NCBI GenBank assembly: GCA_023436425.1
Contig: JAEZJD010000032.1
Location: 1-39,666, forward strand
Length of the DNA stretch: 39,666 nucleotides
Reading direction: 5' to 3'
Source: Bacteroidota bacterium
GTDB taxonomy: Bacteria > Bacteroidota > Bacteroidia > Chitinophagales > Chitinophagaceae
Part shown: one piece after another, positions 27,961 through 37,797 of the stretch
How the letters are laid out: every line of letters begins with the position of its first letter
Position numbering within the stretch: position 1 is the stretch's first letter
Notes under the pieces: model-generated
Database searches by the model: none
Seen by the model: only the letters and a program-made list of their open reading frames with translations
Told to the model about the DNA's origin: nothing
Translations under genes and position numbers: made by a program

Positions 27961-29220
27961 ATGGCAGATCTATTTGAAAGACTTCTAAAGAATTACGGAC
28001 CTCTTGGACAACATCGTGAAAGAGCGTACGGCTATTACGCTTTTCCAAAGTTAGAGGGTGACATTGGCAGTAGAATGAAGTTTAGAGGCAAGGACGTTAT
28101 TGTGTGGAGCTTAAATAATTATTTAGGACTTGCAAACCACCCCGAAGTACGCCAGGCAGATGAACAAGGCACAAGAGAATTCGGGCTCGCGTACCCGATG
28201 GGTGCCAGAATGATGAGCGGAAACAGCATTCATCACGAACAGTTGGAAAGGGAATTAGCTGCCTTTGAAAACAAAGAAGACGCTTGCCTGCTGAACTATG
28301 GTTACCAGGGTATGGTGAGCATCATCGATGTGTTGTGCAGCCGGCATGACGTGATTGTTTACGATGCCGAAAGTCACGCTTGCATCATTGATGGCGTTCG
28401 CTTGCATCCCGGTCAGCGGTATGTTTTTAAACACAACGACATTGAAGATTTCGAAAAGCAATTACAACGAGCCGCTGCGTTGATTGATGATAAAGGCACA
28501 GGAGGAATTCTCGTTATTACAGAAGGCGTATTTGGAATGGCAGGTGATCAGGGGAAGCTAAAAGAAATTGCTGCACTAAAAGAAAAATACAACTTTCGTT
28601 TGCTTGTAGATGATGCACACGGTTTTGGAACTCTAGGCAAAACAGGAGCCGGCGCAGGCGAAGAACAGGGTGTACAAGACAAAATTGATCTTTACTTTTC
28701 CACTTTTGCAAAATCAATGGCGTCTATCGGGGCCTTCGTTGCAGGCGACCGAAACATCATTGACTATATTCGCTGGAACATTCGCAGCCAGATTTTTGCA
28801 AAGAGCCTGCCGATGCCCTTTGTACTCGGAAATTTAAAAAGGCTGGAACTGTTGCGCACCAGACCAGAATTGAAAAATAAATTGTGGGAGAATGCACGCA
28901 AGCTGCAAAACGGATTAAAAGAAAAGGGCTTTGATATTGGCAATACAGACACACCAGTAACACCTGTGTACATGAAAGGTGGTGTGGAAGAGGCAACCGC
29001 AATGGTGCTTGACCTTCGTGAAAACTATGGAGTCTTTGCCTCCGTTGTGGTATATCCGGTAATTCCAAAAGGTCACATTATTTACCGATTAATCCCAACT
29101 GCCGTACACACCGATGCTGATATAGAAGAAACGCTCGTCGCTTTTGAAGAGACGAAGAAAAAGCTGGATGAAGGAGCGTATAAAACAGAGGTTATTCCTG
29201 ATATGGCTGAAGCAAGATAA
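27961..29220 (+). CDS. PLP-dependent alpha-oxoamine synthase family enzyme; probable cysteate-C-fatty acyltransferase (sulfonolipid synthesis)
   Basis: NYLGL, HACIIDG, FKHND, EGVFGMAG, VDDAHG, STFAKS (PLP lysine). The DLFE...GPLG...FPKLEG N-terminus and SQIFAK resemble, from recollection, the Flavobacterium sulfonolipid enzyme rather than SPT, BioF or Kbl. Confidence 0.85.
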   Translation: MADLFERLLKNYGPLGQHRERAYGYYAFPKLEGDIGSRMKFRGKDVIVWSLNNYLGLANHPEVRQADEQGTREFGLAYPMGARMMSGNSIHHEQLERELAAFENKEDACLLNYGYQGMVSIIDVLCSRHDVIVYDAESHACIIDGVRLHPGQRYVFKHNDIEDFEKQLQRAAALIDDKGTGGILVITEGVFGMAGDQGKLKEIAALKEKYNFRLLVDDAHGFGTLGKTGAGAGEEQGVQDKIDLYFSTFAKSMASIGAFVAGDRNIIDYIRWNIRSQIFAKSLPMPFVLGNLKRLELLRTRPELKNKLWENARKLQNGLKEKGFDIGNTDTPVTPVYMKGGVEEATAMVLDLRENYGVFASVVVYPVIPKGHIIYRLIPTAVHTDADIEETLVAFEETKKKLDEGAYKTEVIPDMAEAR

Positions 29221-29240
29221 TAGTTCATATTCCTGGTAAG

Positions 29241-29268
29241 AAAGCACTGCAAACGCGGTGCTTTTTTT
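29241..29268 (+). terminator. Intrinsic terminator
   Basis: AAAGCACTGC-AAAC-GCGGTGCTTT with a T7 tail, 20 nt after the stop. Confidence 0.82.
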
Positions 29269-29330
29269 AACGATGCATATCTTGCGAAATAATTACTTTT
29301 ACGACTCATTTGAAATAGCTGATCGCTACA

Positions 29331-29444
29331 ATGAAAAAGAACACACACAACAAACAATTCGTTTTCCATGCGCAAGCTGCTACACGCATGTACGATGTGT
29401 GCTTCGACCTATTTCGCTATCTCTCAAGACGACGCAGCTTCTGA
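29331..29444 (+). CDS. Putative arginine-operon leader peptide (37 aa)
   Basis: Hand translation MKKNTHNKQFVFHAQAATRMYDVCFDLFRYLSRRRSF*. Tandem Arg codons AGA-CGA-CGC at 29427-29435. Lies between a terminator and the first arg gene. Confidence 0.6.
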   Translation: MKKNTHNKQFVFHAQAATRMYDVCFDLFRYLSRRRSF

Positions 29445-29543
29445 TAGGACGAGCTTCTTACCACAGCCCCTATCAGTGAACTCCTTCCGCATACGTTGGT
29501 ACAGGATTGGTAATCCAAATAAGTCTGTTCAATCTTTTACACA

Positions 29544-30257
29544 TTGGAGAATCAAAACATCATCATAAGGGTGGCGACACCGGATGACAAAAAATATTCA
29601 AAAACCATCACGGATGAAATGGAATCGTCCGCAAAAGCTCGCGGAACCGGCATTGCTAAACGAACCCCTGAATATCTGGACTTGAAGATTGATGAGGGCA
29701 AAGCAGTGATTGCCGTTACACCCGAAGGAGAATGGGTCGGCTTCTGCTACATCGAAACCTGGGAAGGTGAATACGTCGCCAATTCAGGACTTATTGTTGC
29801 TCCAATCTTTCGCAAAAGTGGTGTTGCTAAAGCTATCAAACAACGCATTTTTCAGCTGAGCAGAGAGAAATATCCTGATGCAAAAATCTTTGGGTTAACT
29901 ACCGGCTTAGCTGTAATGAAGATCAATAGTGAACTCGGATACGAGCCTGTAACTTATTCGGAACTCACGCAGGATGAGAAGTTTTGGGCGGGATGCAAAA
30001 GCTGTGTGAACTATGACATTTTGATGAGCAAAGAGCGAAAGAATTGTTTGTGCACTGCCATGCTTTTCGATCCCAAAGATCATTACGAGCCTAAAGAAAC
30101 ACAGGAGCATTTCGAAGAAAAAAGCAAAGTGTACGAAAGGCTGCTGAAGAGCAAGCAAAGCAAATTTTTAAAGCGGCTGATTGGAGCTGATAAAAATAAT
30201 GCGGACCGCAACAACAATCGAAAGCTAAAGATGTTTTTATTCAACTTACTTCATTAA
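29544..30257 (+). CDS. GNAT-family acyltransferase, probable N-acylglutamate synthase (ArgA role)
   Basis: NSGLIV..FRKSGVAK acyl-CoA-binding motif and a CKSC...CLC cysteine cluster. First gene of an arg operon that has no other argA or argJ. TTG start. Confidence 0.8.
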   Translation: MENQNIIIRVATPDDKKYSKTITDEMESSAKARGTGIAKRTPEYLDLKIDEGKAVIAVTPEGEWVGFCYIETWEGEYVANSGLIVAPIFRKSGVAKAIKQRIFQLSREKYPDAKIFGLTTGLAVMKINSELGYEPVTYSELTQDEKFWAGCKSCVNYDILMSKERKNCLCTAMLFDPKDHYEPKETQEHFEEKSKVYERLLKSKQSKFLKRLIGADKNNADRNNNRKLKMFLFNLLH

Positions 30258-30267
30258 TAATTGTTAG

Positions 30268-31470
30268 ATGAACAAATTGGTCCTTGGTTTCAGTGGTGGA
30301 CTTGATACTTCGTATTGTGCAAAATACCTGAGCGAAGAAAACGGCTATGAAGTTCACAGTATTGTTGTGAACACTGGTGGCTTTACTGGCGATGAATTGA
30401 AAAAAATTGAGCAACATGCATACAGCCTTGGAGTGAAATCGCATACCACGGTCGATGCAGTCAGCAGTTATTATGACCGGATCATTAAGTATCTGGTATT
30501 TGGGAACGTATTGAAGAACAACACTTATCCACTTAGCGTAAGTGCGGAGAGATTGATTCAGGCATTGCACATTGCAGAACACGCGAAAAAGTTGGGTGTG
30601 CAGGCGGTAGCACATGGAAGCACGGGTGCAGGCAACGATCAGGTACGCTTCGACATGATTTTCCATATCATGATTCCTAACGTTGAGATCATCACTCCTA
30701 TCCGCGACCTGAAGTTGAGTCGTCAACAGGAAATTGAATATCTCAAGAGCAAAGGAGTTGACATGAATTTCGAAAAAGCTCTGTACTCAATTAATAAAGG
30801 TTTATGGGGGACCAGCGTTGGAGGAAAAGAAACACTTTCGTCGAAAGGCTGGTTACCGGATGAAGCCTGGCCATCAGCCGTGACGAAAACCGGCAATGAA
30901 GAAGTGAAGCTTTTCTTTGAAAAAGGTGAGTTGAAAGCTGTTAATGATCAAATTTCTTCACATCCTTCCGAATCGATTCAACTCTTACATTCTATTGCTG
31001 CACCGTACGGCATCGGAAGAGATATTCACGTGGGCGATACCATCATCGGCATAAAAGGACGAGTCGGATTTGAAGCTGCAGCTCCCATGATCATCATCAA
31101 AGCACACCATGCACTGGAGAAACATGTGCTAACGAAATGGCAGCTTAACTGGAAAGATCAATTAGCTCAATTTTATGGCAACTGGTTACATGAAGGTCAG
31201 ATTTTGGATCCCGTAATGAGGGACATCGAAGCTTTTTTTGAAAGCTCACAGCATAATGTGACCGGCGATGTTTTTTTGCAGCTTCTTCCTTACCGTTTTC
31301 AGATCACGGGCATTGAATCTAAATTTGATTTAATGAGCAGCAAGTTCGGTAATTACGGTGAGATGAACACAGGCTGGAGTGGAGACGATGTCAGAGGTTT
31401 TAGTAAAATCTTCGGAAATCAAACTGCCATTTATCACCAGGTGAAAGAATCAGCAGATGGAAAAAATTAA
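30268..31470 (+). CDS. argG: Argininosuccinate synthase
   Basis: FSGGLDTS, AHGSTGAGNDQVRF, GIKGRVGFEA. Confidence 0.96.
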   Translation: MNKLVLGFSGGLDTSYCAKYLSEENGYEVHSIVVNTGGFTGDELKKIEQHAYSLGVKSHTTVDAVSSYYDRIIKYLVFGNVLKNNTYPLSVSAERLIQALHIAEHAKKLGVQAVAHGSTGAGNDQVRFDMIFHIMIPNVEIITPIRDLKLSRQQEIEYLKSKGVDMNFEKALYSINKGLWGTSVGGKETLSSKGWLPDEAWPSAVTKTGNEEVKLFFEKGELKAVNDQISSHPSESIQLLHSIAAPYGIGRDIHVGDTIIGIKGRVGFEAAAPMIIIKAHHALEKHVLTKWQLNWKDQLAQFYGNWLHEGQILDPVMRDIEAFFESSQHNVTGDVFLQLLPYRFQITGIESKFDLMSSKFGNYGEMNTGWSGDDVRGFSKIFGNQTAIYHQVKESADGKN

Positions 31471-32461
31471 AGTTGGAATAGTTGGCGGAGCGGGTTATAC
31501 GGGTGGCGAATTGATTCGTTTGCTCATTCACCATCCGGATGTATCTATTTCTTTTGTTCATAGCCGCAGCAATGGTGGCAAGTTTGTTCAGGATGTTCAT
31601 CAGGATCTAATTGGCGAAACCGATCTGAAATTTACGGATCGACTGTCCGATGAAATTGACGTTCTCTTTTTATGCGTTGGTCACGGCGAAGCGAAAAAAT
31701 TTTTGATCGGGAATGACATCTCTCCTAAAATAAAAATCATTGACCTTTCGCAAGACTTTCGATTAGCCGAAAGCGCTGAGCTAAACGGTCGCAGTTTTGT
31801 ATATGGCCTGCCCGAATTGAATAAAGAGCAGATTAGATCTGCCATTAGTATTGCAAATCCTGGTTGCTTTGCAACAGCTATTCAATTGGGACTATTGCCG
31901 CTGGCAAAGGCTAACCTGTTAGACGAAGTTTATACAACGGGTATTACGGGTTCAACAGGTGCAGGACAAAGCCTTACGTCAACATCTCACTTCAGTTGGC
32001 GTGCAAATAATATTCAGGCGTACAAAACATTGACGCATCAACATCTAAGAGAAATACATCAATCGCTGAACCAATTGCAGCCAACCTTTCCGCTCACAAC
32101 GAACGAATCGAATGATATGCGACTAACATTTGTTCCATGGCGCGGCGATTTTACAAGAGGCATTTTTATTAGTTCAACAATCACCTGCGACTGGAGCCTT
32201 AACGATCTGATTTCTCTTTATGAAAAGTTCTACGGCGATCATCCATATACAAGCTTGAGTCAACGCGAAATCTTTTTAAAACAAGTCGTGAACACTAATA
32301 AATGTGTGATTCAGCTCGAAAAAATTGGTACAAAGCTCGTTGTTCATTCGGCGATCGATAATCTATTGAAAGGCGCATCGGGGCAAGCCGTGCAGAACAT
32401 GAACATCATGTTTGGGTTGGATGAGTGTGCAGGATTAAACCTAAAAGCAACAGCATTCTAA
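31457..32461 (+). CDS. argC: N-acetyl-gamma-glutamyl-phosphate reductase
   Basis: GGAGYTGGEL, IDLSQDFR, YGLPE, IANPGCF, IDNLLKGASGQAVQN. Confidence 0.96.
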   Translation: MEKIKVGIVGGAGYTGGELIRLLIHHPDVSISFVHSRSNGGKFVQDVHQDLIGETDLKFTDRLSDEIDVLFLCVGHGEAKKFLIGNDISPKIKIIDLSQDFRLAESAELNGRSFVYGLPELNKEQIRSAISIANPGCFATAIQLGLLPLAKANLLDEVYTTGITGSTGAGQSLTSTSHFSWRANNIQAYKTLTHQHLREIHQSLNQLQPTFPLTTNESNDMRLTFVPWRGDFTRGIFISSTITCDWSLNDLISLYEKFYGDHPYTSLSQREIFLKQVVNTNKCVIQLEKIGTKLVVHSAIDNLLKGASGQAVQNMNIMFGLDECAGLNLKATAF

Positions 32462-32463
32462 AC

Positions 32464-33645
32464 ATGAAATTATTTGACGTTTACCCCATCAACGACATCA
32501 ACATAATAAGAGCTAAAGGGTCGTACGTATGGGATGAAAATAATGTACAGTATTTGGATATGTACGGCGGTCATGCAGTGATTAGCATTGGACACACTCA
32601 TCCTCAATGGGTGCAAAGAATAGAAGACCAGTTGCACAAAATCGCTTTCTATTCAAACTCTGTAAAAATTCCAATTCAAAAGCAATTAGCAGATAAATTA
32701 GAAAAGCTGAGTGGAAAAAAAGATTATCAACTTTTTCTTGTAAACAGCGGTGCCGAAGCCAATGAGAACGCTTTGAAGCTCGCTTCGTTTCACACCGGAA
32801 GAAAAAAGATTGTTGCTTTCAACAAAGCTTTTCACGGAAGAACCTCTCTCGCAGTTGCCGCAACTGATAATAAGAACATCGTTGCTCCCGTGAACGAAAC
32901 AGAAAACGTCGATTTTCTTCCGTTCAATGATGAAGATGCGTTGCGGAATTATTTTGACGAAAATGGAAATAACATTGCCGCCGTTATCATAGAAGTTATT
33001 CAGGGGGTTGGAGGCATTAATGTAGCAAGCAAAACTTTCATAAAGCTAATTCGCGAGCTATGCAACAAAAGTGGCGCATTGTTGATCGCTGATGAAGTGC
33101 AGTGCGGATATGGTCGCAGTGGAAAATTCTTTGCGATCGATTATGCGGGTGTGGATGCTGATATTTATTCTATGGCAAAAGGAATGGGAAATGGTTTTCC
33201 AATCGGTGGAATTTTGATTGCTCCACACATTCAATCGAAACACGGCATGCTTGGGACAACCTTCGGAGGCAATCACCTGGCGTGTGCGGCCGCATTGGCA
33301 GTGTTGGAAGTAATCGATGAAGAAAACCTGGTTGCTAAAGCAGACGAGAACGGACAATATTTAATGGAACAACTGCGTCAAATTCACCAAATTTCAAACG
33401 TGCGTGGAATGGGACTGATGATCGGATTTGATACCTCCTCTGCGCTGAAGAATTTGAAGAGTGTACTGTTGCAGGAATTTAAAGTTTTCACGGGAGAAGC
33501 AAAACCAAACGTTATTCGCTTATTGCCGGCATTAAATATCAGCAGAGAACAAATCGATCGGTTTTTAAACAGTCTGCGGAGTGCCATTGCAATGCTGAAT
33601 AAAGAACAGAACGCAGAAGTGAGTGACACAACAAAAGTGCGATAG
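32464..33645 (+). CDS. argD: Acetylornithine/succinylornithine aminotransferase
   Basis: Class-III aminotransferase: NSGAEANE, FHGRT, DEVQCG, AKGMGNG, GTTFGGN. Start MKLFDVYP at 32464. Confidence 0.93.
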   Translation: MKLFDVYPINDINIIRAKGSYVWDENNVQYLDMYGGHAVISIGHTHPQWVQRIEDQLHKIAFYSNSVKIPIQKQLADKLEKLSGKKDYQLFLVNSGAEANENALKLASFHTGRKKIVAFNKAFHGRTSLAVAATDNKNIVAPVNETENVDFLPFNDEDALRNYFDENGNNIAAVIIEVIQGVGGINVASKTFIKLIRELCNKSGALLIADEVQCGYGRSGKFFAIDYAGVDADIYSMAKGMGNGFPIGGILIAPHIQSKHGMLGTTFGGNHLACAAALAVLEVIDEENLVAKADENGQYLMEQLRQIHQISNVRGMGLMIGFDTSSALKNLKSVLLQEFKVFTGEAKPNVIRLLPALNISREQIDRFLNSLRSAIAMLNKEQNAEVSDTTKVR

Positions 33646-33669
33646 CAGTACTACAGTCGAAAACATAAA
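33617..33669 (+). repeat. Dispersed ~53-bp element, copy 2
   Basis: AAGTGAGTGACACAACA-AAAGTGCGATAGCAGTACTACAGTCGAAAACATAAA. Encodes the last residues and the stop codon of argD. Confidence 0.8.
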
Positions 33670-33682
33670 CATATTTCAATCA

Positions 33683-34648
33683 TTGAAGCAATTCATTTCT
33701 GTAAACGACGCTCGAGACATTAATGGCTTAGTTGCGAAAGCCCTGGCATATAAATCGGATCCGCTGAAGGACAAACACATTGGCAGCGGCAAACGAATCG
33801 GTTGCATCTTTTTAAATCCGAGCATGAGAACACGGCTAAGCACACAAGTTGCTGCGCAAAATCTCGGAATGGAAGCCGTCGTTTTCAACGCGGGAAGCGA
33901 AGGCTGGGCGCTGGAGTTTGAAGATGGCGCAGTGATGAATGGAACAACAGTAGAACATGTGAAAGATGCGGCACCGGTGATGGGTAAGTACTTCGATATC
34001 CTTGCGGTGCGGACATTTCCTTCTTTGAACAACCGGGATGACGATTACAGCGAATACGTGATGATCCAATTTATTAAGTATGCGGGTGTGCCGGTTGTGA
34101 GTTTGGAAAGTGCTACGCTGCATCCGTTACAAAGCCTTGCCGATGTTATCACAATTAGCGAGGTGAAACAACAACTGAAAATTGAAAATCGAAAACCAAA
34201 AATCGTTCTTACCTGGGCGCCGCACGTAAAGCCTTTGCCGCAATGTGTGGCCAACAGCTTTTCGCAGTGGATAAATGCATGGGGTGAATCGGAGTTTGTC
34301 ATTACACATCCTGCAGGCTATGAGTTGGATGAACAGTTTACGAACGGTGCAGCCATTACACACGATCAGCAAGCTGCTCTCAATAGTGCCGATTTTGTTT
34401 ATGTGAAGAATTGGAGTTCGTACAGAGACTATGGAAAAATTTTGTGCAGCGATTCAGATTGGATGCTTACAAATGAAAAATTGGAACCAACTAACAATGC
34501 TAAAGTGATGCACTGTTTACCGGTTAGAAGAAATGTCGAACTCAGTGACGAAGTGTTGGACAGCGATAGCAGCATCATAACGCAGCAGGCTGGTAATAGG
34601 GTCTGGTCCGCCCAGGTTGTTCTTTCGGAAATAATTAGTTCTTTATGA
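33683..34648 (+). CDS. argF': N-acylornithine carbamoyltransferase (ArgF', probably N-succinylornithine-specific)
   Basis: NPSMRTR, HPLQ, TWAPH, KNWS and MHCLP.RRN are typical of AOTCase/SOTCase. Likely start TTG 33683 (LKQFISV). Confidence 0.9.
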   Translation: MKQFISVNDARDINGLVAKALAYKSDPLKDKHIGSGKRIGCIFLNPSMRTRLSTQVAAQNLGMEAVVFNAGSEGWALEFEDGAVMNGTTVEHVKDAAPVMGKYFDILAVRTFPSLNNRDDDYSEYVMIQFIKYAGVPVVSLESATLHPLQSLADVITISEVKQQLKIENRKPKIVLTWAPHVKPLPQCVANSFSQWINAWGESEFVITHPAGYELDEQFTNGAAITHDQQAALNSADFVYVKNWSSYRDYGKILCSDSDWMLTNEKLEPTNNAKVMHCLPVRRNVELSDEVLDSDSSIITQQAGNRVWSAQVVLSEIISSL

Positions 34649-35430
34649 TGAGCGAGTTATTCGTTATAAAAATCGGCGGCAACATTATCGATGATGACCA
34701 AAAAATTTCGACATTTCTGAAAAATTTCTCTGGTTTCCGAAAGAACAAAATTCTTGTTCACGGTGGAGGCAAGCTCGCTAGCAAACTTGCCGAACAACTA
34801 AATGTTCCGCAAAAAATGGTGGATGGGCGGAGGATTACCGATGCTGAAACGCTCAAAATCGCAGTAATGGTGTACGCCGGGTACATCAACAAGAAAATTG
34901 TCGCCGAACTACAGGCAAATGGATGCAATGCCATCGGAATGACGGGTGCTGATGGCAATTCGCTAACTGCGCATAAACGAGTGCATCCAACAACGGACTT
35001 TGGTTTTGTCGGCGATGTGGATGGAGTTCAAACTCCTTTTTTTCAATCTTTATTAAAACAATCGGTCGTGCCCGTGGTAGCGCCTATTACGCACGACAGC
35101 AAAGGTCAGCTGCTTAATACCAATGCAGACACCATTGCGCAAGAGATCGCAAAAGCGATGAGCGGTAATTACGAAACAACACTCATTTATTTATTTGAAA
35201 AGTCTGGAGTGCTTGCAAATCTGGCTGACGAGAATTCCGTTATCTCTAAAATAACGCTCTCTTCCTTTTCGAAATTGAAAGAGCAGAAAACAATATCGGA
35301 TGGAATGATTCCGAAGCTGGAAAACGCATTTGCTGCCATCAACAGCGGAGTGAAATCAGTGATCATCGGAAAAGCAGAAGATTTGCAGGAACTATCAAAC
35401 GGCATAAAAGGAACAACAATTGTTAGCTGA
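34645..35430 (+). CDS. argB: Acetylglutamate kinase
   Basis: IKIGG, VHGGG, GRRITD, LNTNAD, GMIPKL. Confidence 0.95.
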   Translation: MMSELFVIKIGGNIIDDDQKISTFLKNFSGFRKNKILVHGGGKLASKLAEQLNVPQKMVDGRRITDAETLKIAVMVYAGYINKKIVAELQANGCNAIGMTGADGNSLTAHKRVHPTTDFGFVGDVDGVQTPFFQSLLKQSVVPVVAPITHDSKGQLLNTNADTIAQEIAKAMSGNYETTLIYLFEKSGVLANLADENSVISKITLSSFSKLKEQKTISDGMIPKLENAFAAINSGVKSVIIGKAEDLQELSNGIKGTTIVS

Positions 35431-36499
35431 AAATAACATAGACCGTTTGCACGCTGAAGCCATAGATGTACTAAAGCAGCTTATTGCATTTCCGTCCTTC
35501 AGCAAAGATGAATGGCAGACTGCAAGCTACCTTACAAAGTTCTTGTTCGATAAGGGATTGCAGGTGACGAGAGTTGGTAATAATGTGCTCGCACTGAATA
35601 GCTATTTTGATGAATCGAAGCCGACTATTCTTCTCAACTCACATCATGACACAGTGAAACCGAATTCCGGTTATTCCAAAAATCCTTTTGCTCCTTCGCT
35701 TGAGAACGGCAGATTGTACGGACTTGGAAGCAATGATGCCGGCGGCGCTTTAGTGTCGCTGATGATGACGTTTTTACACTTTTACCCGCGGCAAAATCTT
35801 CGGTACAATCTCGCCTTTGCTGCCACTGCGGAAGAAGAGATTTCAGGTTCAGGAGGAATAGAAAGTGCGCTCAACTACTTACCAAAAATCGAATTTGCGA
35901 TTGTTGGTGAACCTACGCAAATGCAACTCGCCATCGCAGAGAAAGGAATTGCAGTACTCGAGTGCACAACACAAGGTAAAGCAGGTCATGCCGCAAGAGA
36001 TGAAGGAGTAAACGCAATTTATCTCGCAATGGCGGACATTGAATGGATAAAATCCTACAAGTTTTCAAAGATTTCTCCGTTGTTGGGCGCTGTAAAGATG
36101 ACTGTTACTTCAATTGAAACTGAGAATAAAGCCCACAACGTTGTACCAGCACAATGCAAATTCCTGATTGATGTGAGGGTGAATGAACTGTATTCGCTGG
36201 AAGATGTAGTGAATACAATTCGGACAAATGTGCAAAGTCAAATAACTCACAAACCATTGCGGATTAAATCCACGTCAATACCGGTCGATCACCCAATAGT
36301 GCAGGCCGGACTAGCCTTAGGAAAAGATTATTATGGATCGCCTACCACATCCGACAAAGCTCTGATGCCATTTCCCGCATTAAAGATGGGACCTGGCGAC
36401 TCCGCAAGGAGCCACATTGCTGATGAATTTATTTTTACCGATGAAATAAAAGAAGGGATAGAAGTTTATATTCAACTACTCAACAAAGTTCTGCTATGA
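35420..36499 (+). CDS. argE: M20 family metallohydrolase, N-acylcitrulline/ornithine deacylase
   Basis: NSHHDTV, GLGSNDAG, AEEE, GEPT, GHAA, SHIADE; arg operon context. Confidence 0.85.
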   Translation: MLAENNIDRLHAEAIDVLKQLIAFPSFSKDEWQTASYLTKFLFDKGLQVTRVGNNVLALNSYFDESKPTILLNSHHDTVKPNSGYSKNPFAPSLENGRLYGLGSNDAGGALVSLMMTFLHFYPRQNLRYNLAFAATAEEEISGSGGIESALNYLPKIEFAIVGEPTQMQLAIAEKGIAVLECTTQGKAGHAARDEGVNAIYLAMADIEWIKSYKFSKISPLLGAVKMTVTSIETENKAHNVVPAQCKFLIDVRVNELYSLEDVVNTIRTNVQSQITHKPLRIKSTSIPVDHPIVQAGLALGKDYYGSPTTSDKALMPFPALKMGPGDSARSHIADEFIFTDEIKEGIEVYIQLLNKVLL

Positions 36500-37797
36500 A
36501 ATTGTGGCAAAAAGAAAACACATCTGTTTCGGAACTGATTGAACGATTTACAGTGGGCAAGGATAAAGAATTTGATCTGCTGCTTGCAAAGTATGATGTT
36601 CAGGGTTCCATTGCACATGTAACTATGTTGGGAGAAGTGGGCTTGATGACAAAAGAAGAAGCTGAGAAAGCAATTAATGCACTGAACGAAATCGAAGACG
36701 AAATTGACGCTTCTCAATTCGAAATTAACGAAAGTGTTGAAGATGTTCATTCGCAAGTGGAACTGCTACTGACTGAACGCATAGGCGAAATTGGGAAAAA
36801 GATACACAGCGGTAGAAGCCGCAACGACCAGATAGCAGTGGACATTAAACTTTTCTTACGCTCAGAAATTCTGCAGGTTGCAGATTTAGTTAAACATCTT
36901 TTCGACCTACTGATTCAGCAAAGCGAAAAATATAAGAACACACTGTTGCCCGGCTATACACACCTGCAGATTGCAATGCCTTCGTCATTTGGTTTGTGGC
37001 TTGGAGCTTACGCTGAAAGTATTGTCGACGATCTGGAAGTTTTATCCGCAGGATTTGCCGTGGCAAATAAAAATCCGTTAGGAAGCGGTGCCGGTTATGG
37101 TTCTTCGTTCCCCCTGAAAAGAAAAAAAACGACTGAGCTTCTTAAGTTTTCCACGCTTAACTACAATTCGGTTTATGCGCAAATGTCGCGCGGTAAAACA
37201 GAGAAAATTGTTGCGATGGGACTGAGCTCTGTGGCTGCAACTTTAGGCAAACTGGCAATGGATTGCACATTGTACATGAATCAAAACTTCGCATTTATAT
37301 CTTTTCCGGCGGAACTTACGACAGGCAGCAGCATCATGCCGCACAAAAAAAACCCCGATGTTTTTGAGTTGATCAGAGCCAAGTGCAATCGTATCCAATC
37401 TATTCCAAATGAATTGACTCTTCTGTTAACGAATCTTCCCTCTGGGTATCATCGAGATTTGCAGCTAACTAAAGAGGTTTTGTTTCCTGCTGTTGAAGAA
37501 CTGAAAGCATGCATCCAACTGACGCAGCTAATGATCTCGAAAATTCAGGTGAATGAAAATATTCTGCGGGACGGGAAATATAAATATCTTTTTACAGTAG
37601 AAGCAGTGAATGAATTAGTGAATCAGGGCATTCCTTTTCGCGAAGCATACAGGCAAATCGGCAACAAGGTTGATGCAGGGGATTTTTCTTGGGACACAAC
37701 TAAACCAATACAACACACGCATGAAGGATCAATTGGAAACTTGTGCAGCGATGAAATTGAAGCAGAAATGGAAAAGGTACTGCAAAAGTTCACGTGA
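36496..37797 (+). CDS. argH: Argininosuccinate lyase
   Basis: MKLWQK, HSGRSRNDQ, PGYTHLQ, GSSIMPHKKNPD, GYHRDLQ. Confidence 0.97.
   Translation: MKLWQKENTSVSELIERFTVGKDKEFDLLLAKYDVQGSIAHVTMLGEVGLMTKEEAEKAINALNEIEDEIDASQFEINESVEDVHSQVELLLTERIGEIGKKIHSGRSRNDQIAVDIKLFLRSEILQVADLVKHLFDLLIQQSEKYKNTLLPGYTHLQIAMPSSFGLWLGAYAESIVDDLEVLSAGFAVANKNPLGSGAGYGSSFPLKRKKTTELLKFSTLNYNSVYAQMSRGKTEKIVAMGLSSVAATLGKLAMDCTLYMNQNFAFISFPAELTTGSSIMPHKKNPDVFELIRAKCNRIQSIPNELTLLLTNLPSGYHRDLQLTKEVLFPAVEELKACIQLTQLMISKIQVNENILRDGKYKYLFTVEAVNELVNQGIPFREAYRQIGNKVDAGDFSWDTTKPIQHTHEGSIGNLCSDEIEAEMEKVLQKFT

Follow-up and report, generated by a model that had tools for sequence, protein, structure and literature searches.

The leader of the arginine biosynthesis operon studied here is probably a ribosome-mediated arginine attenuator, in which a short upstream open reading frame (uORF) with a run of arginine codons ends inside an RNA hairpin. 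This reading rests mainly on sequence comparison. We compared 81 Chitinophagaceae leaders located upstream of a GNAT-argG operon, namely the leader in our window (the whole stretch of 39,666 nucleotides that was analysed) and those of 80 further loci. The original prediction had suggested looking for a conserved Arg-tailed uORF in relatives, and all of its computational checks came out in its favour. In 76 of the 81 leaders this hairpin was present and enclosed the uORF stop codon in its 5' arm; the remaining five have a uORF ending in RRPRI and other hairpins. In the literature searched, no prior description of an arginine leader attenuator of Bacteroidota was found.

The leader peptide and its arginine codons

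The preceding gene, encoding a BioF/Kbl-family aminotransferase (27961-29220), is followed by an intrinsic terminator with a T run after the stem (29241-29268; all features described here lie on the forward strand), which folds at -17.3 kcal/mol (z -5.2, with none of 200 shuffles as good) and isolates the leader as a separate transcription unit. A candidate promoter -7 box, CTCATTTG (29305-29312), is located 136 nt before the hairpin. It is an imperfect match to TAnnTTTG, which we take to be the Bacteroidota-type -7 consensus; the exact motif is absent from the window, and CTCATTTG has the same placement as the exact boxes in relatives. Of the 74 unique leaders, 67 have an exact box ahead of the uORF, at a distance of 104-176 nt from the hairpin, where 7.3 would be expected from shuffles. 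The presumed regulated operon (29544-37797) contains an acetyltransferase-like (GNAT) gene opening with TTG, followed by argG, argC, argD, an acyl-ornithine carbamoyltransferase gene, argB, a gene for an ArgE/DapE-family deacylase and argH. The position of argG next to the first gene is shared by 78 of the 80 related loci.

The uORF sits directly upstream of this operon in the same orientation. As predicted, it consists of 37 codons and a TGA (29331-29444, with the ATG at 29331 and the TGA at 29442-29444); it encodes MKKNTHNKQFVFHAQAATRMYDVCFDLFRYLSRRRSF, ends in SRRRSF before the stop codon and is conserved and translated-looking in relatives. The four Arg codons claimed for its last nine codons are all present (CGC at 29415-29417, AGA at 29427-29429, CGA at 29430-29432 and CGC at 29433-29435), and the last three form the run AGA-CGA-CGC (29427-29435), in which the CGA begins 11 nt before the hairpin. 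The 71 unique Chitinophagaceae tails contain one Arg codon in 3 cases, two in 21, three in 33 and four in 14, so that 68 have at least two. CGA occurs in 67 of them and makes up 41.5% of the tail Arg codons versus 12% of Arg codons genome-wide, the rarest Arg codon genome-wide being AGG (11%) and not CGA. Relative to the outer hairpin stem, P1, 45 tails have their last CGA starting at -11 and another 19 have it at -17.

The coding signature is strong and suggests that the uORF is translated. Synonymous and non-synonymous codon differences number 6807 and 7160 in frame versus 774 and 13231 or 417 and 13464 in the shifted frames, and the entropy at codon positions 1, 2 and 3 is 0.56, 0.44 and 1.39 bits (42 unique 24-codon blocks). 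Start codons (ATG, GTG or TTG) are found at a conserved position across relatives. A block of 24 residues, TH(T/N)K..F(H/Y)...VY.V(C/G)(F/Y)D.F, is present in 43 loci, and purifying selection on the peptide clearly extends well past the Arg run. The ends of the peptides show the conserved pattern (P/R)G(C/F), and the stop codon lies in the context TGAT in 47 and TGAC in 23 of the 71 tails. Such strong conservation of the peptide ahead of the Arg run is not something that a pure codon-counting model requires.

Outside the Chitinophagaceae, 60 genomes of other families were compared, and in 35 of them the first gene of the operon is likewise preceded by a uORF tail with at least three Arg codons, including 22 of 22 in family f25, which also lacks ArgR, and 5 of 5 in family f12; 3.9% of 992 control upstream regions carry such a tail. 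The looser criterion of at least two Arg codons is reached by 21.9% of the control regions, and no uORF of this kind was seen in 21 of the 60 leaders of the other families. Family f25 has a conserved peptide block of its own, MQ..(L/A)AHRID.

These peptide data bear on a different reading, in which free L-arginine would act with the conserved nascent peptide inside the exit tunnel and halt the ribosome on the stop codon or close to it, thereby keeping P1 melted and the operon off, comparable to the fungal arginine attenuator peptide, TnaC (tryptophan) and SpeFL (ornithine). Such an arrest peptide would fit the selection beyond the Arg run, the separate block of family f25, the fixed stop codon with its context and the conserved peptide ends. 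However, the N-terminal parts of the peptides are unrelated between lineages, and the Arg codon run is the only feature common to all leader types and families. To our knowledge, cognate codons are not required by the ligand-sensing arrest peptides described so far, which also counts against this reading, and we consider it quite unlikely.

The hairpin around the stop codon

The two complementary segments of the original prediction were found at the positions claimed: the 5' arm of P1, CTGATAGG (29441-29448), holds the uORF stop codon (29442-29444), and the 3' arm, CCTATCAG (29469-29476), keeps eight of eight pairs. Between them lies an inner helix, P1b, with its loop (29451-29468), formed by the pairs 29451:29468 and 29453-29455:29465-29467 and containing TTACCA (29458-29463) in the loop. 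Taken by itself, the hairpin of the window is not beyond chance (-11.0 kcal/mol, z -1.47), since 15 of 200 shuffles fold as well. We accept it as real because it is conserved and covaries across relatives and not from its stability in the window.

The covariation looked for in the stem is clear. Pair 29-60 is UA in 33 leaders, CG in 25 and UG in 15 and is never unpaired, and in P1b the pairs of alignment columns 37-55 and 39-53 covary as well. Overall, 92.7% of the P1/P1b cells are paired, versus 29-46% with the partner slid, and the covariation score was reached by none of 500 shuffles. The other families retain the Arg uORF but not the P1/P1b RNA.

From the hairpin to the start codon

P1 is followed by a conserved TGAA and a C-rich tract, CTCCTTCC (29477-29488), which might be a Rho loading region or the partner of GTTCA (29527-29531). 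A pyrimidine-rich tract had been predicted here and is present, but it is only moderately C-rich: the 60 nt after the 5' arm contain 29% C and 19% G. The C-over-G bias after P1 places the window at the 94th percentile of its genome, and 14% of the leaders exceed the 95th. Directly before the start codon, GTTCAA and TCTTTTAC (29527-29540) stand out by their conservation.

The small GGATT/AATCC hairpin also proposed for this region (29504-29516) did not hold up, being weak (-3.3 kcal/mol, z -1.0) and lacking covariation support: of 51 rows, 21 do not form pair 75-81 and 11 do not form pair 74-82. It was dropped, and the segment is predicted to pair with the P1 loop instead. It contains TGGTAA (29508-29513), which is complementary to the loop TTACCA and could thus form a pseudoknot or an alternative pairing. 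The alignment supports such a contact between TNACCA and TGGTNA in the family: pair 20-80 is AU in 16, CG in 10, GU in 7, UA in 5, GC in 2 and another combination in 11 of 51 rows.

Several further candidates were tried and rejected. A nested alternative helix, in which YAGG, located before TGGT, would pair with the first half of the 3' arm of P1, is poorly supported, as 23 of 51 rows do not form pair 32-71 and 18 do not form pair 33-70. For a start-codon sequestor formed by TCCNN after TGGTNA with NTGGA, inspection of the alignment by eye found only TCC:GGA constant and the rest inconsistent. Programmed frameshifting, with the hairpin or pseudoknot 8 nt after the CGA, was dismissed since a slippery heptamer is lacking and the alternative frame that stays open through P1 is too short to be meaningful. 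When the 5' arm was blocked in constrained folds of 74 leaders, computed without the pseudoknot, the accessibility of the start codon did not shift consistently (by +0.007 on average, rising in 21 leaders and falling in 16).

From these elements the following course of events can be proposed. A promoter upstream of 29331 would generate the leader RNA and the 37-codon uORF would be translated. If charged tRNA-Arg is scarce, the ribosome would wait at CGA or another CGN codon with its front edge just short of P1, and P1 could form. If arginine is plentiful, the ribosome would reach the stop codon and cover the 5' arm of P1, leaving the C-rich 3' arm and the loop free for other contacts, including that of TNACCA with the downstream TGGTNA. 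The position of the ribosome would thus determine the fold of the leader and thereby the expression of the GNAT-argG operon. We infer the stalling, the fold that means "on" and the output step. Since no canonical terminator is present, the leader lacks one of the parts that define the classical design, and we can only guess at the output step: Rho-dependent premature termination has, in our estimate, a little less than an even chance, control of initiation at the TTG or GTG start codon is a tentative option, and a cryptic terminator is unlikely. A gene for Rho is present in the source genome (Rho_RNA_bind, E 1.2e-36).

The predicted lack of a U-tailed terminator in the leader was borne out by the search of positions 29000-29800, in which none was found. 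A trp-type version of the Arg-codon sensor would nevertheless terminate intrinsically if TGAA(n) after P1 paired with (n)TTCA before the TCTTTT(T)AC tract at the start codon. TGAA after P1 as well as TTCAA and TYTTTTAC before the start codon are conserved, and the window and two relatives gave weak terminator-like matches ending at the T tract. In addition, flavobacterial his and ilv leaders, with leader peptides annotated for Flavobacterium psychrophilum, use clear terminators (PMC9723704). The best TGAA(n):(n)TTCA helix averages 5.28 bp, barely above the 5.04 +/- 0.09 bp obtained with shuffled partners, and was set aside as a long-range helix. This short, A+U-rich helix around some 45-60 nt does not resemble functional terminators, and matches of any kind, weak and heterogeneous, were obtained for just 14 of the 81 leaders, while the same organism has a strong canonical terminator 200 nt upstream. 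This full trp-type design is therefore very unlikely.

Beyond the paired positions of P1/P1b, the unpaired positions are near-invariant as well (GGMCGAGC, GCCCC and GTGAA). Such a pattern is seen more often in recognition surfaces than in simple switch helices, so that a protein or small ligand controlling the operon could in principle bind to P1/P1b, with the uORF being secondary. However, the motif is single-copy: it occurs once in the source genome, the 33 of 121 family genomes that carry it have one copy each, and the search of the genome for a second copy that would indicate a regulon found none. The invariance is partly explained by the overlapping coding frame and the stop codon. Rfam 15 gave only two chance-level matches (E > 7) for the window leader and, for 20 leaders, nothing except a tRNA and one sub-threshold match elsewhere; neither a T-box nor another Rfam family matched a leader. 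Together with the other families, which keep the Arg uORF without this RNA, these results make a binding site highly improbable.

A few gene callers predict the uORF, as a hypothetical protein. NCBIfam searches with five leader peptides gave no match, and a protein database search with a 40-residue relative returned 14 homologues, all unnamed or called "hypothetical protein". That the uORF is simply a small protein with its own function, co-transcribed with the arg genes and without any attenuation, would agree with these predictions and homologues and with the purifying selection on its amino-acid sequence, but has very little to recommend it, as it leaves unexplained the Arg-run tail common to otherwise unrelated peptides, the stop codon fixed in a covarying hairpin, the structured spacer of about 95 nt and the distribution of the leader-bearing operon design and ArgR over largely different families.

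Known systems and arginine control in Bacteroidota

The classical leader-peptide transcription attenuators of amino-acid operons are trpL, hisL, pheL, leuL, thrL and ilvL/ivbL. The arginine leader resembles them in that its uORF is short, apparently translated, rich in cognate codons towards its end and located directly before a biosynthetic operon, and, as proposed here, in an RNA helix placed so that the position of the ribosome decides on its formation. It differs in the amino acid, arginine, for which no element of this type was found in the literature searched, in the lack of a G+C-rich hairpin with a U tract, in the stop codon located inside a covarying hairpin, in the strongly conserved peptide and in the loop-to-downstream pairing with its possible pseudoknot. 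Rho-dependent control by leader peptides is known from mgtL/mgtA and mgtP/mgtCBR in Salmonella and from tnaC in E. coli. There, too, the ribosome on the uORF selects between folds or masks a Rho loading site, and an intrinsic terminator is not necessary; in contrast, the putative Rho site described here has a moderate C-over-G bias, the signal would be the supply of Arg-tRNA and the target would be the arginine operon.

Sensing of arginine by a uORF occurs elsewhere. The fungal arginine attenuator peptide (arg-2/CPA1 uORF) is eukaryotic and senses free arginine via the nascent peptide without an Arg codon run. It is similar in that a conserved uORF peptide precedes an arginine-pathway gene and, by analogy, regulation would involve a stalled ribosome; the leader described here, however, is bacterial and contains an Arg codon run. 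In Staphylococcus aureus, rbfL is an arginine-sensing uORF located across the ribosome binding site of a biofilm regulator, which it represses at low arginine (PMC13009471). Arg codons of this small uORF sense arginine limitation via ribosome pausing, as proposed here, and the output is translation initiation and not a terminator. The leader studied here differs from rbfL in that about 100 nt separate the end of the uORF from an arginine operon that needs induction at low arginine. In further contrast to rbfL, Bacteroidota do not use Shine-Dalgarno sites.

Textbook control of arginine biosynthesis is by the repressor ArgR, and arginine is absent from the classical lists of amino acids with leader-peptide attenuation. 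Arg-specific T-boxes are mentioned for arginine as well (PMC1262725). ArgR with its ARG boxes and the Arg T-boxes serve the same task, feedback control of the arginine biosynthesis genes. Unlike these systems, the leader has no T-box match and no ArgR was found in the family: the original prediction had noted that no argR is adjacent, and an ArgR domain was detected neither in the window nor in the source genome (93.45% complete) nor in 80 further family genomes (0 of 81 in all, each at least 90% complete), while control genomes did score. In a sample of the phylum, ArgR was found in 87 of 201 genomes, and ArgR and the leader-bearing operon design fall in largely different families.

Genomes and families without ArgR carry Arg-codon leader peptides before the arginine operon, and these follow several unrelated designs. 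A broader proposal would be that the ArgR-less Bacteroidota have replaced ArgR phylum-wide by arginine leader peptides, the Chitinophagaceae form being a dedicated stalling module in which a conserved nascent peptide acts together with an invariant CGA that is decoded slowly and sits 11 nt before a hairpin-pseudoknot bearing the stop codon, without an intrinsic terminator and with an output via Rho or via initiation control independent of Shine-Dalgarno sites. In this complete form the proposal is speculative and rather doubtful. The Chitinophagaceae design is unusual in having no terminator, a stop codon in a covarying hairpin and a conserved peptide, and these features make it a good system for the readout of ribosome-sensed control in bacteria without Shine-Dalgarno sites. 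If the attenuator reading is true, it would explain how arginine synthesis is regulated in a large part of the Bacteroidota, including soil, freshwater and marine families.

The arginine operon and its leader

A spacer of 275 nucleotides lies between the terminator of an upstream aminotransferase gene and an arginine operon of eight genes, in the order acetyltransferase-like gene, argG, argC, argD, acyl-ornithine carbamoyltransferase gene, argB, ArgE/DapE-type deacylase gene and argH. It contains a uORF of 37 codons (ATG at 29331, peptide MKKNTHNKQFVFHAQAATRMYDVCFDLFRYLSRRRSF), whose final codons are AGA CGA CGC AGC TTC TGA. The stop codon is enclosed in the 5´ arm (CTGATAGG, 29441-29448) of a hairpin, P1, and the 3´ arm (CCTATCAG, 29469-29476) is the complement of CTGATAGG. 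The original prediction, which had read this leader as a candidate arginine-sensing leader-peptide attenuator, was correct in all its coordinates when the window sequence was read again.

The first operon gene (29544-30257) has no Pfam match at an E-value of 0.001 and a weak match to an NCBIfam N-acetyltransferase model (E 2.5e-4, 21 bits versus a cut-off of 154). The carbamoyltransferase (33623-34648) scored 281.9, slightly below the N-acetylornithine carbamoyltransferase cut-off of 288. TTG or GTG, and in rare cases ATG, serves as the start codon of the first gene in most Chitinophagaceae (29544 in the window and the homologous starts of loci L001-L080), with a conserved TTCAAYTYTTTWMCAA-like tract upstream of it; two other families, f25 and f5, use ATG for this gene.

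Conservation of the uORF and the hairpin in Chitinophagaceae

A scan found relatives of the first operon gene at 80 Chitinophagaceae loci, giving 81 leaders with the window. In 78 of the 80, argG comes next in the same orientation, and the two remaining contigs end too early. The uORF TGA lies within CTGAYAGG, with CCTRTCAGTR 20–24 nucleotides further on, in 76 of the 81 leaders including the window, one exception among them being L012, which has a TAG stop in CTGGTAGG. The other five (L061, L062, L065, L069 and L077) have a uORF ending in RRPRI and different hairpins downstream of it. The predicted uORF with a C-terminal Arg run is conserved in the orthologous leaders, in either of these designs.

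Among 71 unique uORF tails, the last eight codons contain one Arg codon in 3, two in 21, three in 33 and four in 14. CGA is present in 67 of these tails and accounts for 41.5% of their Arg codons, versus 12% of the Arg codons in the window's own genome (1120 long ORFs); the last CGA begins 11 nucleotides before the hairpin in 45 tails and 17 nucleotides before it in 19. The covariance model R1, built on the P1 element, matched 33 of 121 Chitinophagaceae genomes with exactly one copy each, and the window's genome has one copy. Seven of eight further Chitinophagaceae genomes examined have an Arg-tailed uORF, either of this design or of a different one.

Upstream of the Arg run, 43 loci (42 unique) share a block of 24 codons, TH(T/N)K..F(H/Y)...VY.V(C/G)(F/Y)D.F, with entropies of 0.56, 0.44 and 1.39 bits at codon positions 1, 2 and 3. 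Synonymous and non-synonymous codon differences number 6807 and 7160 in frame, and 774/13231 and 417/13464 in the two shifted frames. The uORF starts (ATG, or GTG/TTG where ATG is missing) share one position in the peptide. Judged by these sequence patterns, the uORF looks translated. Of 74 unique leaders, 67 have an exact TAnnTTTG, which we take to be the Bacteroidota -7 promoter consensus, ahead of the uORF and 104–176 nucleotides before the hairpin (7.3 expected from shuffles); the sole candidate box in the window is an imperfect one, CTCATTTG (29305-29312), in the corresponding place, 136 nucleotides from the hairpin.

By itself, the window hairpin does not stand out (-11 kcal/mol, z -1.47, with 15 of 200 shuffles folding equally well). 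The alignment A1 comprises 73 distinct core sequences (the window and 72 loci, after exclusion of three exact duplicates and five motif-less loci), and each of these sequences retains all eight P1 pairs. The variable P1 pair is U-A in 33, C-G in 25 and U-G in 15 sequences and never unpaired, and two pairs of the inner helix P1b covary (37-55: GC 46, AU 15, GU 3, CG 2, other 7; 39-53: CG 50, AU 17, UA 2, UG 1, other 3). Overall, 92.7% of the cells are paired, compared to 29–46% with slid partners, and none of 500 shuffles reached the covariation score, so that a covarying stem is indeed present in the orthologous leaders. RNAalifold returned the same helix and no other common structure.

The second hairpin of the original prediction, GGATT/AATCC (29504-29516), is weaker than P1 (-3.3 kcal/mol in the window) and found no support in the aligned relatives. 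Its middle is the sequence TGGTNA, to which the hairpin loop TNACCA, about 45 nucleotides upstream, is complementary in the 53 of 73 sequences that we call type 1 (19 sequences without the TGGT element and L024, with a 30-nucleotide insertion, were excluded). In 51 distinct type 1 rows the loop pair 20-80 is AU 16, CG 10, GU 7, UA 5, GC 2 and other 11 times, which would be compatible with either a pseudoknot on top of P1 or a part of an alternative fold. A nested alternative helix was poorly supported in the alignment. The closest relatives, the Flavisolibacter group (L001-L009, L011, L043 and the window at 29496-29501), have a second TTGGTA copy about 8 nucleotides before GGATTGGT, and in constrained folds this copy pairs with the freed P1 3´ arm.

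ArgR and Arg-rich leaders across the phylum

The original prediction had noted no argR next to the operon, and ArgR (PF01316, PF02863) was found neither in the window's genome, which is 93.45% complete, nor in 80 other Chitinophagaceae genomes (0 of 81, all at least 90% complete). Of the 201 genomes in the phylum sample, 87 have ArgR. The distribution of the first operon gene is the reverse: 79 of the 201 have it, most of them from families that lack ArgR (f1 11/12, f5 13/13, f12 5/5, f25 29/33; f18 0/39, f21 0/11, f26 0/13). The only two sampled genomes with both the first gene and a strong ArgR match, G108 (C10:12450-13493) and G201 (C6:85149-86249), have argR directly upstream of the first gene, and the leader uORF is absent there.

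Upstream regions from other families were available for 60 genomes, out of 67 matches outside f1. A uORF with a start codon, an end 30–160 nucleotides before the gene and at least three Arg in the last eight codons was found in 35 of the 60, and with at least two Arg in 39; among 992 control upstream regions from the window's genome the corresponding figures are 3.9% and 21.9%. The 35 comprise f25 (22/22), f12 (5/5), f5 (4/13), f2 (2/3), f6 (1/2) and f28 (1/1), with none in the others. CGG codons are used for the f25 peptides (e.g. MQ..LAHRID.R..RRIPRRR), which share a conserved block of their own.

All 22 f25 genomes (L111-L132) have the leader MQ..(L/A)AHRI(D/N)...RR.PRRR about 70–105 nucleotides upstream of the first arg gene, and downstream of its CGG runs come a small hairpin and a CATCTTTT(T)ACC-like tract. 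Upstream of one f25 leader (L111:55-110) there is a whalefall-1 match below the Rfam threshold (28.5 bits, gathering score 37, E 9e-4). In f5, loci L091, L092, L094, L097 and L099 have Arg-tailed uORFs with the stop codon in a hairpin loop closed by a short G+C stem (e.g. GCCC-GTAA-GGGC), and a conserved GAACTTAGGTGAGTCCGGTTC comes after; no Arg-tailed uORF of that sort is present in eight further f5 genomes, most of which belong to one genus.

Possible mechanism, output and precedents

The Arg codon run is common to all lineages whereas peptides and RNA folds differ, which suggests that the translating ribosome senses charged tRNA-Arg. The nascent peptide may also contribute, or even act as an arrest peptide for free arginine, as the strong conservation of the peptide could suggest, but given the features common to the lineages this is less parsimonious. 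The same holds for a factor bound to P1, despite its nearly invariant unpaired bases. If charged tRNA-Arg is sensed, a ribosome with the CGA at -11 in its A site, covering about 15 nucleotides past the first P-site base, would extend to the first base of P1, which would allow the hairpin to stand. Once the stop codon had entered the A site, the ribosome would cover the entire P1 5´ arm and the ACGAG directly after it. In analogy to the trp attenuator, we infer that P1 would form under arginine starvation and that plentiful arginine would release its 3´ arm and loop for other contacts. The geometry of the window design is suggestive of such a ribosome-position model.

As predicted, the leader has no classical U-tailed terminator: a consensus scan of the window leader found no intrinsic terminator, and a scan for hairpins with T-rich tails gave just weak, heterogeneous matches in 14 of 81 leaders. 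This absence is meaningful because the same genome has a textbook terminator, the strong one of the aminotransferase gene 200 nucleotides upstream, and because flavobacterial his and ilv leaders have clear ones (PMC9723704). Downstream of P1 the sequence is moderately rich in C and poor in G (C 29%, G 19%; the window is at the 94th genome percentile), and Rho is encoded in the window's genome. mRNA structure tunes initiation in Bacteroidota, as stated in PMC6847099; start-site accessibility showed no consistent change in the constrained, pseudoknot-free folding of 74 leaders. Among the candidate outputs, we consider Rho-dependent termination slightly more likely than initiation control, and a cryptic terminator the least likely.

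No Rfam family matches the leaders, no NCBIfam model matches the leader peptides, and 14 database homologues are named 'hypothetical protein' at most. In agreement with the original claim of novelty, no leader peptide for arginine biosynthesis, from Bacteroidota or elsewhere, was found in the open-access literature, a search in which an older subscription paper could be missed. The element is real, conserved and very probably regulatory, and it would be leader-peptide attenuation in a new form. Among the nearest precedents is S. aureus rbfL, described in PMC13009471 as an arginine-sensing uORF; for F. psychrophilum, PMC9723704 makes a general remark on leader peptides before amino-acid operons and concerns his and ilv, not arg. 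The present case adds the Bacteroidota families, the opposite family distributions of ArgR and the operon design, and a design without a terminator.
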